Positions 1 through 14,892 of a stretch of DNA of 14,892 bases are shown here, in pieces (the stretch's first letter is position 1; each line of letters starts with the position of its first letter). The stretch lies in NCBI GenBank assembly GCA_030668875.1, contig DAOVER010000063.1:1-14892 (forward strand), in the 5' to 3' direction. The notes below the pieces were generated by a model. That model did not search any database, was not told where the DNA came from, and worked only from the letters and a program-made list of their open reading frames with translations. Origin of the DNA: Candidatus Heimdallarchaeota archaeon (GTDB taxonomy: Archaea > Asgardarchaeota > Heimdallarchaeia > Heimdallarchaeales > Heimdallarchaeaceae). Both the position numbers and the translations under genes were made by a program.

Positions 1-48
1 TTGCATGTTGAGGTGGTGATGGTTAATACCTCTCCAATTTTCTTCCAT
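1..48 (-). CDS. Possible 5' start of the element-encoded protein (MEENWRGINHHHLNMQ..., truncated by the window edge)
   Basis: ATG at 48-46, open to position 1, directly after the structured leader. The W-x-x-I-N-x-x-x-L spacing resembles the W-x-x-I-[ND]-W-x-x-[LV] start of group II intron RT/maturases (RVT_N), but only 16 aa are visible and the second W is H. Confidence 0.3.
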   Translation of the reverse strand, partial: MEENWRGINHHHLNMQ

Positions 49-337
49 TTTTCTACGAGTTTATATAGGAAAGTGTTGATATATGGGTAGTGCTTGGCGA
101 AAACTCGCCATATTTATGGTTCGCAAGTGTTTGAACACTTGCCCCTCAGTTAATAAAGTTTGAACCATACAGCACGATGCGCAATGGCAGGAATGTAGTC
201 GGAGTAAATGCGCACTCCCTTCCTTCCTTCCCCAATCATGATCCTCATGATTCTTCCCCTCAACGCACGTGAGGGGACCCACTTAAACGACGGTTAGACC
301 GCCTTTGGCAAGTTTAACCAAGTTTCATAACGTGCGT
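49..337 (-). ncRNA. Putative structured RNA (or ssDNA) leader of the terminal element
   Basis: Inverted repeats read directly, in + coordinates: 292-319 hairpin; 256-262/270-276 (7 bp, 7-nt loop); 234-241/245-252 (8 bp); 201-205/214-218; 90-94/171-175 enclosing 95-100/105-110 and 116-122/162-168; 123-130/135-142 (8 bp). I recognise no known RNA family motif. Confidence 0.5.
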
Positions 338-668
338 CTTCACCATAGATATCATACATATCTGGTGAGGCTCCACCGCCGGATAGACCGACTACACCTA
401 GGTCAAAGTCTCTTGTTAACATTAAAGTTCCAATGAACACTGTCCATTCTTCGACTTTAACTTCTATTTCAACACCAATCTCTCTTAGGTATTGAGCTAT
501 ATACAAACCATAGTCAGGTCGTACTCCACCGCCGTTAGTCTTGAAGACTAAGTTAGCTATTGGCTGAACTCCTGCATAAGTGTTATTTGCATTGTATACG
601 CTCATTACAACTAAGCTAGAAAGGATAACTACTGTAAAAAGCATCACTTTTTTTCCCAAATTTTCCAC
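294..668 (-). pseudogene. 5' fragment of an ABC-type peptide/oligopeptide substrate-binding protein (family 5-like), interrupted by the terminal element
   Basis: Hydrophobic signal/TM segment, then IAQYLREIGVEIEVKVEEWTVF...DFDLGVVG, typical of family-5 solute-binding proteins. The last ~14 codons (294-337) are element-derived. The real start may be TTG at 659, 5 nt after an AGGTGG site. Confidence 0.7.
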
Positions 669-1956: not shown

Positions 1957-2856
1957 TTATTTTCGTTTTCTTCTTATTATTACTATTACACTAAAAACTA
2001 CTAATCCAACAACAGCAAAGGACCATTCATAAGATGCACTGGTTGGCAACTGAGTACTTTCTATCAATAAGTCAACTGCTGTAGTGTCATCAACTAAAGA
2101 ACCCTCAGTTTCAAGAATTCTATTCCAGTTGAAAGTGTATTGCAAATATGTTACTAACCCTGTTTCTCTGTTAAATCGTAGTTCTGCAACCAAAGTTTCA
2201 GTAGTATGCTCTTTGAACCAATTGTCTGGGTTTCTGAAGTTTTCTACTGTTTCATCTTCAGAAGAATCAATCTTAATTGTCCAAGTATTCGTACTTAGTT
2301 TAGTAGAAGTAACAACTTTCTTAATTTTAAGTTCATAGAATGCATATTCATTAGTTTCTTTTCTTGATTCCTCATCTTTTTCAGAATAACCATTGTGGTA
2401 AATCAGAAAATTGTCATAGACACCAGTTGAATTTGTGTATAATGTAGGCTCCAAGAAGTAATAATCCCCTAAATCCATCCAAGATAAATCAAATATACCA
2501 ATGTCATCTACATTTGTAGATTGGTTTACGTCGTTAAGGGAAAATTCAACCCATACATTTGAAGTGTTGAACAGTTGAAGAGGATCTCCTATTGCTGATT
2601 CATTTACATCTAAAAGTATCGTTGCTGTCAACTTGTCTCCTTGATGAATCGTTTCATCTCCATAATCTAAGAATGCGTTAGTATCTGATCCAACTACAGC
2701 CAGTGTGGTTACACTCCAATCATAAGTAACATCAGGGACTAAAAGCAATGAATAACTATATTCTTGACCTCTTACTATGTTGTTTGAGTTCAAAGAACTT
2801 AGAATAATTAAGGAGAAGAATACTCCTAGCAAAATCATTTTTTTTGAATTTCTCAT
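1957..2856 (-). CDS. Secreted/surface protein with N-terminal signal and C-terminal membrane anchor
   Basis: Basic and hydrophobic N-terminus, polar beta-rich body, C-terminal TM helix followed by RRKRK. AGGTGAG ribosome-binding site just upstream of the ATG. Confidence 0.8.
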   Translation of the reverse strand: MRNSKKMILLGVFFSLIILSSLNSNNIVRGQEYSYSLLLVPDVTYDWSVTTLAVVGSDTNAFLDYGDETIHQGDKLTATILLDVNESAIGDPLQLFNTSNVWVEFSLNDVNQSTNVDDIGIFDLSWMDLGDYYFLEPTLYTNSTGVYDNFLIYHNGYSEKDEESRKETNEYAFYELKIKKVVTSTKLSTNTWTIKIDSSEDETVENFRNPDNWFKEHTTETLVAELRFNRETGLVTYLQYTFNWNRILETEGSLVDDTTAVDLLIESTQLPTSASYEWSFAVVGLVVFSVIVIIRRKRK

Positions 2857-2951
2857 CTTTTCTCACCTAAGCTAATTCTTAACCAAAGAATACTTGTAAT
2901 TATATAATCGCTTTTCAAATAATATAAACCTTTGGAGAATACTAGAGGTAG

Positions 2952-3955
2952 TGTTAACTCAACAGACATGGGTTACACTTGAGGGTATAGAGAGAGTCAA
3001 GGGCACATTCATAAATCTTTCACCAGGAGTTTGAAGGTTTATTCCTTGGTGGGGGCGGGAGAAGTTGTAATAGTCACGATAACGACGGAGGTCAGCATTA
3101 CAGTAAGTTAATTCTAACCTCTTCATCTCTCTGATGATTGTACCATGGAGACGCTCGACTTTACCACAAGTTTCGGGATGATACACTCGTGCTCGGATAT
3201 GGTCGATAATATTCGTCTTACACCATCGGGTGAAGGAACTTGTCCCTCCTCTTTGTGGGTGGAAGATGGCACCATTATCTGTTAAGATCTGACGGGGAGT
3301 GCCATAGGTTTGCATAGCCTGGTCTAAGAGATGGAGGATGTCCCAGGTCTTAACAGGACGGGGGAAGAACTTTGCTCCTACACAGAACCGTGAGTGGTCA
3401 TCAATAACACTTACAAGGTGAAGATGCTGTCCCTGTTCTTCTACCCAGAAGGGTCCCTTGATATCTATCTGCCAGAGATCGTTAGGTTCTTCTCGTTCGA
3501 ACCTTTTCACCCTCTTGTAAGCTTTCTTTGTCGTTCTCCACTTCTCCTCCCCCTCTTGTTGGAGCGTCTTCCAGACAGTCGTGTGAGAAAGGTTTATCCC
3601 TTCGAGTGTTAGGATATAGGCTATTTTCACTATATTGAAGCCATATGCTCTCCTGAGAGCGAGAATACGCTCCTTCTTTTCTTCTGTCACTTTCCCCTTG
3701 ATCGTCTTGGGTCGCGAGGATCTTTCCTTGTACCATTCCCCTTCAGGGTCCTCGCTATGTCTTTTCATCCACTTATAGATGAACTTCCTGCTGACCATAA
3801 ACGCTCTAGCTAGATGGGTAATGTTTTCGCCATTCAAAGCCTTTTTAACTACAATTTTTCTAAGTTTTACCAGGTTACGTTTGGGTTTCATGTTTAATCA
3901 CATACCCTCCGTAACCCATTCTTTTAAACTGTTACCAAGGTGGGTTTAGTTAACA
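2952..3955 (-). mobile_element. IS481-family insertion sequence, 1004 bp
   Basis: 5'-TGT...ACA-3' ends. Imperfect 29-bp terminal inverted repeats: TGTTAACTCAACAGACATGGGTTACACTT vs TGTTAACTAAACCCACCTTGGTAACAGTT, 22/29. Single transposase ORF. Visibly higher GC than the flanks. Confidence 0.9.
2959..3891 (-). CDS. IS481-family transposase (HTH + rve integrase core)
   Basis: DDE motifs WQIDIKG, VIDDHSRF, ILTDNG, GKVERLHGTI and YYNFSRPHQGI..TP; N-terminal HTH (VSRKFIYKWMKR). The stop codon lies inside the terminal repeat. Confidence 0.95.
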   Translation of the reverse strand: MKPKRNLVKLRKIVVKKALNGENITHLARAFMVSRKFIYKWMKRHSEDPEGEWYKERSSRPKTIKGKVTEEKKERILALRRAYGFNIVKIAYILTLEGINLSHTTVWKTLQQEGEEKWRTTKKAYKRVKRFEREEPNDLWQIDIKGPFWVEEQGQHLHLVSVIDDHSRFCVGAKFFPRPVKTWDILHLLDQAMQTYGTPRQILTDNGAIFHPQRGGTSSFTRWCKTNIIDHIRARVYHPETCGKVERLHGTIIREMKRLELTYCNADLRRYRDYYNFSRPHQGINLQTPGERFMNVPLTLSIPSSVTHVC

Positions 3956-4004
3956 ATTGATTATTCTTTTTAAAAAAACTATAAAAGAGAAAATAATGAG
4001 GTAG

Positions 4005-4517
4005 TTATATCCCAAAAGGAGAATCCCACGCAACTATCTCGGTAGTATTATAGACAAAGCTGTGTTTGAATAAATAGAAGTTAATTACTAAACTTATCCC
4101 TATCTCTATTTCTAAGTCTCCATCTTGAATTGCTAATAAAACAATCTCTGTTGTGATATTAGTTTCTATATCTCCAGACCAGTTTGATCCAGGTTTAATA
4201 TCTCCAAGGTTATTAACACCTTCTCCCAATAGAAGACCATTCAAGCTACTTATGAGGAAATTAGCTCCGTAAATTTTAATTTTTACAACAATGTTTTGAA
4301 ACTCATATAATCCACCATTGGATATTTCTAAATGGGTTTTTGAAACAATAAAACCAGTGTAATCAAATAATAATTCCGTAATGTTTGATGTTACTGTAGT
4401 ATCATCTACTGAATATATAACATTCTTGTAGGAGTAAAATAGCGTTCCACCAAATGCTCCAACTAAGATAATTACTGTTGTAAAAATAATCAGGAAAATT
4501 TTTAATCCCTTTTTCAT
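4005..4517 (-). CDS. Single-pass membrane protein, hypothetical (possibly LEA_2-like beta fold)
   Basis: N-terminal TM helix followed by a beta-rich soluble part; GGTGA site upstream of the ATG; T-rich tract downstream. The fold guess is inference. Confidence 0.7.
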   Translation of the reverse strand: MKKGLKIFLIIFTTVIILVGAFGGTLFYSYKNVIYSVDDTTVTSNITELLFDYTGFIVSKTHLEISNGGLYEFQNIVVKIKIYGANFLISSLNGLLLGEGVNNLGDIKPGSNWSGDIETNITTEIVLLAIQDGDLEIEIGISLVINFYLFKHSFVYNTTEIVAWDSPFGI

Positions 4518-4590
4518 ATCTCACCAGAAAAATTATCAACTAAAAAACATATTCTTTAAACTAGTAAATTGCCTCTATTTGTTCTTAAAC

Positions 4591-12783: not shown

Positions 12784-13517
12784 TATCTAACACTCTTTGT
12801 TTTAACAAATTCGAGTAGTATATAATACTAGTTAAGAGAAAGTGTAGGTTTTGATATAAAAAGAAAGATAGTTTTTTGTAAGAATCAAATAACGATAAGA
12901 GAAGAATAAATATTTCAGAAGATTTGATGAGTTCTTTTCACCATTTAGCGGATTTATTGAATTTTCTATTCACTTTGAAGCTGTATCATTTTCAATGGGA
13001 TTCCTCTGACTTCTAACAATAGAATTATAATTCATAAATCGGATTTATGCCTATATTTAATATCTTTGTAGGTTAAAATATGAAAAATCCATTAAAACAG
13101 TCCAAAGCCTCAATTAGACAATTTGTATGTGTTATACTATTAATTTTTGTAATAAGCATGTCCTCTAATATGAAAGTAAATGCTACAAACGTCTCTCATG
13201 ACCCACCATCTTGCTCTTCTCTGATTCCACATGATTCTATTGAAATTACTTCTGATAGTGGTTTTTTAGTTTTTCCTGGTTCAGGAATAGTAGAAGATCC
13301 TTATCTTATTGAAGGATACAATATTACGACACCGAGTGCAAGTGGAATTTATATTGAGGGTACAACGAAACATTTCGTTGTTCGTAACTGTTATGTAGAT
13401 GCATTAAGCTATGGTATTCGTATCTATAATGTAGCTTCTGGAACAGCAACTATCGAGAATAACATGATCAACAACAACGACATGGGCATCTTTCTTTCCT
13501 CTTATGATTCTTCCACT

Positions 13518-13623
13518 GTTTCCAACAACACTTGTAGCAATAACATTTATGGCATCTATCTTTCCAATTTTGGTTCTTCTACCGTTTCCAACAACACTTG
13601 TAGCAATAACATTTATGGCATCT
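13518..13623 (+). repeat. Two identical 40-bp copies at 66-bp period within the beta-helix gene
   Basis: GTTTCCAACAACACTTGTAGCAATAACATTTATGGCATCT at 13518-13557 and 13584-13623. Confidence 0.95.
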
Positions 13624-14186
13624 GGCTTGAGTCTTCTGCTAGTTCTACTGTTGTAAACAACACCTGTAACTTCAACAATGTAAATGGGATCATGCTTTGG
13701 GCTTCCGCTAGTTCCACTGTTATAAACAACATTTGTAACAATAACAACTATGGCATTGGCGTGTTTCAACATTCTGATAGTTCTACTATTGCCAACAATA
13801 CTTGTAGCAACAACAACGAATATGGTATCTGGTTTAGGGATTCTGATAGTTCTACAGTGGCCAACAACACTTGTAGCAACAACGACTGGTATGGCATCTC
13901 TCTTGAAGAGTCTGATTTTTGTGTTGTTACTTACAATCTCTTACAAGAAAATGAAAACTATGGAGTATACTTATATTTAGATTCTGATAATAATCTTGTT
14001 CATCATAATACCTTTGTAGACAATAATCTAGGCGGAACTTCCCAAGCAATAGATAGTGGAGCTAACAACTACTGGTATGATACTGTAGCTTTGGAAGGTA
14101 ATTACTACAATGATTGGTCAGGAACCGGTTCTTATTCTATTGATGGTTCTGCTGGTTCTATTGATCTCTATCCTCTTGATGGCTCC

Positions 14187-14210
14187 CCATCTGACCCTCC
14201 ATCTGACCCC
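14187..14210 (+). repeat. 12-bp tandem repeat encoding a PSDP-PSDP linker
   Basis: CCATCTGACCCT followed by CCATCTGACCCC, between the two beta-helix modules. Confidence 0.85.
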
Positions 14211-14751
14211 CCACTTATCCCACATGCTTCGATATCAATTACTTCTGATATTGGATTTGCGGTTTTTCCCGGTTCAGGAACAGCTGAAGATCCTTATCTT
14301 ATTGAAGGGTATAACATTACAACAACAGATACTATTGGTATTCATATATCTGGTACAACAAAATATTTCGTTGTTCATAATTGCTATGTTAACGCAAATG
14401 ATTATGGCATTTATATCGATAATGTAGCTGCTGGTACAGCAATTATCATTAGCAACACTTGCAACAACAATAACTTAAGAGGTATCTATATTTACGAGTC
14501 TAGCAGTTCTACTGTTGCCAACAATACTTGTATCAACAACTGTGAATATGGTATTTATCTTGGGGATTCTGTTAGTTCAACTGTTTCCAACAACACTTGT
14601 AGCAACAATAACCTTTATGGCATCTATCTTGACTCTTCTGGCAGTTCTACTGTTTCTAACAACTTTTGTAGCTATAACAACGATGGCATCCTGCTTTACT
14701 GGTCTGTTAATTCTGATGTTACTAACAATATGTGCAACAATAATGATGATT

Positions 14752-14892
14752 ACGCACGTTATGAAACTTGGTTAAACTTGCCAGAGGCGGTTTAACCGTC
14801 GTTTAAGTGGGTCCCCTCACGTGCGTTGAGGGGAAGAATCATGAGGATCATGATTGGGGAAGGAAGGAAGGGAGTGCGCATTTACTCCGACA
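14752..14892 (+). mobile_element. End of the same unclassified multicopy element (copy 2, runs off the window end)
   Basis: 138/141 nt identical to the reverse complement of 197-337; begins abruptly inside a beta-helix repeat. Confidence 0.85.

Follow-up and report, generated by a model that had tools for sequence, protein, structure and literature searches.

The short complementarity between a hairpin loop and the end of a repeated element in Candidatus Heimdallarchaeota very probably represents the pseudoknot of an omega/reRNA-type guide-RNA scaffold, located at the right end of an IS607-family transposon. It was analyzed in a stretch of 14,892 nucleotides (from now on referred to as the window), which is one contig (C73) of an assembly of 99 contigs. 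The RNA is read here in the sense of the TnpB-like gene of the transposon, in which direction it would be transcribed. Its last ~90 nt would fold into two structures, designated H1 and H2, and its final 6–7 nt (CGUGCG-U) would pair with the apical loop of H1, directly 5' of a flank that would serve as the guide. What had appeared as a puzzling junction pseudoknot hereby becomes a recognizable part of a guide-RNA scaffold. The features found include an IS607-family serine-recombinase TnpA in the same element, a structured RNA region on the tnpB strand at or after the tnpB 3' end that ends at the right end, a pseudoknot between an apical loop and the nucleotides directly 5' of the guide position, variable flanks after the terminus (26 copies) and a left flank AC before the core in 18 of 19 sites. 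Guide use, a target-adjacent role (TAM) of the left flank, binding of the RNA by the TnpB-like protein and transcription are inferred from these sequence features; the RNA-labelled sequencing runs that contain the sequence all consisted of contigs and were probably DNA libraries, or else extended only over a paralogue of the neighboring gene.

Both copies of the right end in the window carry the complementarity. In copy 2, whose RNA sense is the minus strand, ACGCACG at 14752–14758 (the 3' arm of the pseudoknot, with the core triplet at 14752–14754) is the exact complement of the 7-nt loop CGTGCGT at 14820–14826 (the 5' arm). This loop is closed by the 7-bp stem CCCCTCA (14813–14819)/TGAGGGG (14827–14833), so that H1 spans 14813–14833; H2 lies at 14770–14797, likewise on the minus strand. 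Copy 1, whose RNA sense is the plus strand, has H1 at 256–276 (stem 256–262/270–276, apical loop ACGCACG at 263–269 as 5' arm), H2 at 285–325 (outer helix 285–288/322–325, main stem 292–299/312–319) and the last seven nucleotides of the right end, CGTGCGT, at 331–337 as 3' arm, of which 335–337 (CGT) are the duplicated or crossover core. The exact match of terminal 7 nt and loop given in the preliminary description was thus confirmed, with its coordinates, in both copies. Its orientation was not: the presumed first seven nucleotides of the element are the last seven of the right end, i.e. its 3' end, on the strand that encodes the TnpB-like protein. Both copies represent one repeat, placed in inverted orientation at the two contig ends (164 nt matched, 93% identity), and therefore count as a single observation. 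A perfect 7-bp hairpin with a 7-nt loop and a complement of that loop no more than 120 nt away is expected by chance 0.03 times per window, based on 200 shuffles of the window.

Full-length elements are ~2.73 kb long and encode a serine-recombinase TnpA and a 638-aa TnpB-like protein but no other gene. On contig C48, a 196-aa ORF (TnpA) is located upstream of the 638-aa ORF, and TnpA precedes the TnpB-like gene at 13 or more related loci as well. TnpA matches NF033518 (IS607 family transposase) with an E-value of 3.1e-48 and 163.8 bits against a cut-off of 110, and contains MerR HTH and Resolvase domains. Pfam and NCBIfam searches of the element's two genes returned no match to Y1 (IS200/IS605) or DEDD (IS110) transposases or to reverse transcriptases. 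The right-end module starts ~3 nt past the stop codon of the 638-aa ORF on C48, on the same strand, while in most relatives the ORF runs through H1, so that the module overlaps the 3' end of the gene. Omega RNAs usually overlap tnpB at its 3' end in this way.

The TnpB-like protein is only weakly recognized by sequence (Cas12f1-like TNB domain, 2.5e-05, under the Pfam cut-off), with CnCas12f1 as the top PDB sequence match. A fold search with its AlphaFold model (mean pLDDT 81.6) returned Cas12f and TnpB structures as best matches with E-values of 1e-9 to 1e-6, among them the ISFba1 TnpB-reRNA-DNA complex (8iaz, IS607) and ISDra2 TnpB (8h1j). TM-scores of these matches are low (0.2–0.47) due to an enlarged N-terminal lobe; ~430 mostly helical residues precede RuvC-I. 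As modelled, the protein is a TnpB/Cas12 fold with a RuvC domain and a zinc finger. Residues D436, E535 and H620 (numbering of the C48 protein, L027:1045-2961) are invariant in the protein alignment A3, as are the ligands of the zinc finger (HxxC...CxxC). RuvC-III reads NTHxNAA in place of DxNAA, and the canonical D-E-D triad is accordingly absent, with the invariant His620 at the position of the third Asp. Guide-dependent cleavage by this protein is for this reason only putative. Among 30 genomes of the same family, 28 encode the large TnpB-like protein. A link to Fanzor proteins was considered because of the protein size and the Asgard host, Asgard being the archaeal group closest to eukaryotes; the fold search gave it no support.

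An unlikely, but the best surviving, alternative accepts that the pairing belongs to a TnpB-type RNA scaffold and holds that the D-E-H protein is no guide-directed nuclease, acting instead, for example, as a binder or regulator or as a nickase, with the RNA serving in targeting without cleavage or in some other role. The replacement of the RuvC-III Asp by an invariant His fits this, and inactivated or rearranged TnpB branches are documented (PMC10691335). Further, one clade without TnpA sits at a fixed place by tRNA-Cys in several genomes, as exapted TnpBs do. However, the main clade is multi-copy, accompanied by TnpA and clearly mobile, the D and E residues are intact, and the same survey catalogued TnpB branches with a D-to-H replacement in RuvC-III and argued that such conserved replacements are probably active (PMC10691335).

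The clade without TnpA is a distant clade of the large TnpB-like protein (~40% identity) that keeps the hairpin and a co-varying pseudoknot. At least six genomes carry it ~60–90 nt from a tRNA-Cys gene in opposite orientation; loci are L197 (C95:31500-37000; gene 2473–4413, tRNA-Cys 4507–4582), L057, L073, L074, L076 and L078. The copy in the present genome, on C95, lies between a methionine sulfoxide reductase gene and tRNA-Cys. Past the pseudoknot, members of this clade have conserved sequence similar to a tRNA 5' half. The clade may represent a fixed or exapted copy, or else an element targeting tRNAs.

The pairing was examined in two alignments of right-end modules, A1 with 33 sequences and A2 with 86 modules (65 of them distinct) from 23 genomes in which ~170 modules were detected. 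A2 was built on a covariance model holding only nested helices, so that the pseudoknot columns were not fitted to the hypothesis. Covariation between loop and junction in diverged homologues, which the preliminary description had named as a check, is present: both-sided compensatory changes occur in four of the seven pseudoknot pairs (13 cells), and none of 500 column shuffles of A2 reached the covariation score of the whole structure. Sliding the partner columns by 1–3 positions lowers whole-structure pairing in A2 from 96.6% to 20–42%. The inner six pairs are 96–100% paired across the 65 distinct modules; the pairs of the H1 stem are 98% paired in the same set. The outermost pair, formed by the A of ACGCACG and the last T of the loop, is paired in only 35 of 64 sequences, and the conserved helix is consequently one of 6 bp. 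Variants seen in A2 include ATGCACG/CGTGCAT, ACACACG/CGTGTGT, ACGCTCG/CGAGCGT, TCGCACA/TGTGCGC and AAACACG/CGTGTTA. A distant clade (37–47% protein identity) retains the hairpin, and its loop is complementary to the 7 nt after CTTCATA, with a one-base bulge in some members. The pairings of this clade use other letters altogether (CGCATAC/GTATGCG, CGCATGT/ACATGCG, CACATAC/GTATGTG, CACATGC/GCATGTG and AACGCATG/CATGCGTT). On the protein tree, the CAT/ATG type appears in three separate places and the TGT/ACA clade includes a member with a G-U intermediate, which shows repeated origins of pairing variants on a tree where some branches are poorly supported. The loop-terminus pairing is a real, selected pseudoknot at the junction of element and flank.

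Several observations bear on the strand. On the tnpB strand, one-sided changes within the pseudoknot comprise eight G-U cells and two A-C cells. One pair of H2 is G-U in 34 of 65 sequences, with compensatory UA and CG changes also present, and another helix contains a U-G pair in 21 of the 65 distinct A2 sequences. These helices cannot form on the strand opposite tnpB. As evidence to the contrary, three decayed copies in this genome (C99, C83 and C53) have one terminus change each, and these leave a mismatch on the proposed RNA strand and a G-U pair on the opposite strand.

These data also speak to a second alternative, namely that loop and terminus form an inverted repeat acting at the DNA level, as subterminal sites bound by the serine transposase, with no RNA helix involved. 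IS607 TnpA is generally known to bind repeated motifs near the ends, and two arms recognized by one protein could change together too. This is nevertheless very improbable, because the left end has no copy of the 7-mer motif beyond the 3-nt core, changes on one side only mostly give G-U pairs on the tnpB strand (eight versus two) and the neighboring helices need G-U pairs on that strand. In addition, the clade without TnpA keeps the complementarity with different letters, which argues against a transposase-binding role.

The preliminary description also considered that the first ACG could be target sequence. At 18 of the 19 sites recoverable in this genome, the left-end junction reads AC followed by CGT (ACGGT on the opposite strand), and flanks beyond it are unrelated. 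The same left-end junction is found in full-length elements here and in other genomes. In a sister genome, the empty orthologous site contains ACGGTA once, at the position occupied by ACG-element-ACGGTA in this genome, which bears out the assignment of the first ACG to the target, and two further insertions are consistent in length with one copy of the triplet in the orthologues. ACG, or CGT in the RNA sense, is thus a 3-nt core present at both ends of the element and once in the target, and the target is ACCGT in the RNA sense. Element and target share the last three nucleotides of the right end (CGT), and with this core triplet inside the 3' pseudoknot arm the helix indeed crosses the junction between the two, as had been supposed.

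The core differs between elements, and the loop differs with it. Elements whose right-end core is TGT have loop letters ACA or TCA and the left end ACTGT (5 of 5), while those ending in CGT have the left end ACCGT in 11 of the 15 listed, the others being ACTGT, ACAGT, CCCGT or unalignable. Left-end core, right-end core and loop co-vary, CGT with ACG and TGT with ACA, although the five TGT elements form one clade and the three-way co-variation is essentially one evolutionary event. Regular expressions, nhmmer and short BLAST searches did not find the left ends of CAT-type and TCGCACA-type elements or those of several tnpB-only elements, so that only the CGT and TGT types underlie this co-variation; for CAT-type elements, ACCAT would be predicted at the left end. 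A fixed 5-nt target containing the recombination core plus, we infer, a variable guide past the pseudoknot accounts for site choice.

Least probable of all is a loop that acts as a guide choosing insertion sites by target pairing, as EBS1/IBS1 of group II introns or the guides of IS605 and IS110 elements do, or a self-cleaving or self-splicing junction: although three nucleotides of the paired terminus are also present in the target and IS607 IStrons with group I introns are described in Clostridia, the partner of the loop is the end of the element itself and not the variable target flank (beyond the core, 26 copies have unrelated flanks), the helix is at the 3' end of the transcript, the element starts with ACGCACG and not GUGYG on the strand of the preliminary description, neither gene matches a reverse transcriptase, Y1 or DEDD family in the Pfam and NCBIfam searches, and there is no Rfam intron or ribozyme match even at E = 1. 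For Rfam, gathering thresholds were applied to the whole window and a cut-off of E ≤ 1 to two complete elements; no family matched, the intron, ribozyme and RAGATH-18 models included. The intron-like mechanism suggested initially, target recognition or self-cleavage, gives way to a pairing internal to a guide-RNA scaffold. A guide of IS200/IS605 or IS110 type fares no better, since the two genes match serine-recombinase and TnpB/Cas12f families only in the Pfam and NCBIfam searches and the two 7-mers pair with each other, not with flanks.

The guide-RNA scaffold reading agrees with what is known of IS607 TnpB systems. Yoon et al. described for IS605 and IS607 reRNAs that ~5 nt flanking the guide pair with an apical loop, a pairing needed for ISXfa1 activity, and that a nucleotide fixed by serine-recombinase crossover is absorbed into the reRNA scaffold (PMC10711439); Ren et al. 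found PK1 to be essential in ISFba1 (PMC11061315). The principle of transposase-fixed nucleotides in an IS607 reRNA scaffold, and of a pseudoknot beside the guide, is therefore already published. Like ISXfa1 (PMC10711439) and ISFba1 (8iaz, PMC11061315), the element described here has a serine-recombinase TnpA upstream of a gene of TnpB fold, a structured RNA at or after the 3' end of that gene that ends at the right end, an apical loop that pairs with nucleotides directly 5' of the guide, and recombinase-core nucleotides built into the scaffold together with a short fixed motif in the left-end flank. It differs in that the protein has ~640 aa (~430 aa before RuvC-I) against ~390 aa, the RuvC-III residue is His rather than Asp, the core is CGT or TGT within the 5-nt target AC(C/T)GT rather than the classical GG crossover dinucleotide, the helix has 6–7 bp rather than ~5, the RAGATH-18 motif is absent and the host is an Asgard archaeon.

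Other known systems resemble it in part. The ISDra2 (IS200/IS605) TnpB-omegaRNA complex (8h1j/8exa) has the same protein fold and a pseudoknot beside the guide (cited in PMC10711439). However, ISDra2 uses a Y1 transposase, single-strand 'peel and paste' and subterminal DNA hairpins where the present element has a serine enzyme, and its scaffold stops exactly at the transposon boundary whereas the scaffold here includes the shared core. Group II EBS1/IBS1 shares the principle of a short loop pairing with sequence at the element boundary, but intron RNA domains, a reverse transcriptase and a 5' GUGYG are lacking here and the pairing is inside the RNA's own 3' end, its partner being no variable exon or target.

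For this little-studied lineage, the large His-type relatives of TnpB that occur in multiple copies in Heimdall (Asgard) archaea, the analysis yields a covariation-backed secondary structure, exact ends, the target AC(C/T)GT and a 3-nt core. Guide, TAM and scaffold can now be designed for a biochemical test of DNA cutting by D-E-H TnpBs. The three-way co-variation of left-end core, right-end core and loop suggests that the crossover site of the transposase and the guide RNA constrain each other. We tentatively hypothesize, as a possibility somewhat short of even, that because the core lies inside the pseudoknot the two cores and the H1 loop must change together, that the switch from ACCGT to ACTGT passed through a tolerated G-U pair and was fixed by a compensatory loop change, that RNA folding thereby constrains the target choice of the transposase, and that amplified gene-less copies are extra guide-RNA genes for the enlarged His-type TnpB.

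Both copies in the window belong to such gene-less derivatives. The first 141 nt of the element, in the orientation of the preliminary description, occur 26 times in this genome, mostly at contig ends, and only the first 86–96 nt in that orientation are shared with longer elements. Two gene-less families of ~400 nt are alike over their whole length, family A with at least 12 copies, including both window copies, and family B with at least five. The genome thus holds at least 17 gene-less copies and ~6 full-length ones. Copy 1 (1–337, plus strand) is the 3' 337 nt of a ~402-nt derivative of family A cut by the contig start; it is 97.7% identical over 304 nt to the copy on C91 and 96.7% identical over 337 nt to the complete copy on C95. 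Copy 2 (14752–14892, minus strand), which the contig end truncates, comprises 141 nt from the right end of the same element family.

Besides the right-end module, the gene-less copies retain upstream parts of the full-length element. A TATA-like box (TTTATATA) followed by GGAGG (60–67, plus strand) marks what appears to be the retained tnpB promoter and leader region, with a putative promoter function; a 40-nt stretch kept in families A and B is 77.5% homologous to the region ending at the start codon of the tnpB-like gene in the full-length C48 element. The 5' part of the scaffold (83–182, plus strand) consists of three nested helices predicted by RNAalifold from five diverged copies, out of 62 predicted pairs over the whole element, eight of them compensatory; compensatory pairs in this part include 98/107, 115/169, 116/168 and 126/139 in window coordinates. 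Overall, ~170 nt of the gene-less copies form predicted helices with compensatory changes between families and genomes. The hairpin AATCATGA-TCC-TCATGATT (234–252, plus strand; perfect 8 bp with a 3-nt loop; counterpart in copy 2 at 14836–14856) occurs in gene-less derivatives only, just 5' of H1, where it replaces the last TnpB-like codons. RNAalifold also offered GCAC, ~120 nt upstream, as another partner of the terminus, which was rejected for lack of conservation between families A and B. The flank read as a putative guide segment in copy 1 is 338–357 (plus strand), and post-terminus flanks of the 26 copies of this genome have no consensus. Judged by sequence, the gene-less copies look like guide-RNA genes without a protein gene. 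They would be mobilized by TnpA acting in trans from full-length copies, and their RNAs would be used by the TnpB-like protein, likewise supplied in trans. Gene-less derivatives of TnpB transposons (PATE/MITE-like) are comparable, as the ~400-nt copies likewise preserve both ends and the complete RNA scaffold in the absence of any gene. The copies described here differ by their IS607-type rather than IS200/IS605 origin and by the retained tnpB promoter region and covarying 5' scaffold.

The 5-nt target accounts for the genes that were hit. Copy 2 truncates a NosD/right-handed beta-helix repeat gene (13080–14751, plus strand; Pfam NosD 1.7e-52, Beta_helix 5e-50), and the Gly predicted after TAC from the repeat pattern is indeed encoded, the insertions lying within Tyr-Gly codons (tAC GGT). 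Position of the target on Tyr-Gly codons explains the beta-helix insertions, and its recurrence in the repeat means that surface-protein genes are hit repeatedly. Contig ends C81 and C84 continue the interrupted beta-helix repeats in frame, and an uninterrupted paralogous repeat is present in the window at ~14400. Insertions in Asp-Tyr-Gly codons (gat tAC GGT a) of NosD/beta-helix genes were seen at 14740–14758 of the window, at C71:141-180 and C5:180-220 and at the C81 and C84 ends. Copy 1 interrupts the 5' part of a solute-binding-protein gene (338–668, minus strand; SBP_bac_5 with an E-value of 6e-06 and 26.1 bits, sub-threshold to the cut-off of 32.4 bits), of which four other genomes have orthologues, and this one a paralogue, that run uninterrupted through the junction. 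The continuation of this gene is not in the assembly, and contig C3, considered as partner contig of copy 1, proved wrong.

Further derivatives and rearrangements were noted. A ~772-nt derivative ending at C15:31483 (L031, C15:28400-31520) has lost the entire TnpB-like gene but still has tnpA, the left end and the RNA module of the right end. At C88:71839-71923, a ~85-nt derivative of family B has an internal deletion that fuses the first ~43 nt of the right end (terminus and half of H2) with the final ~51 nt of the left end; lacking H1, it has no partner for a pseudoknot. Compared with orthologous sites that are uninterrupted in sister genomes, some ~400-nt copies have swapped flanks, such that sequence upstream of one copy resumes downstream of another (C83:33627-34026 with C29:51573-51972; C95:100419-100820 with the start of C47). 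This may be due to homologous recombination between copies (inversion or translocation) or to assembly mis-joins across the repeat. In a DNA run of a marine-sediment metagenome, the summed contig depth at 313–336 was ~150x that of the unique flank (553–700), and the rest of the element reached ~17–40x; such depth sums all organisms in the sample and is not a copy number, and it fits a widespread, multi-copy module.
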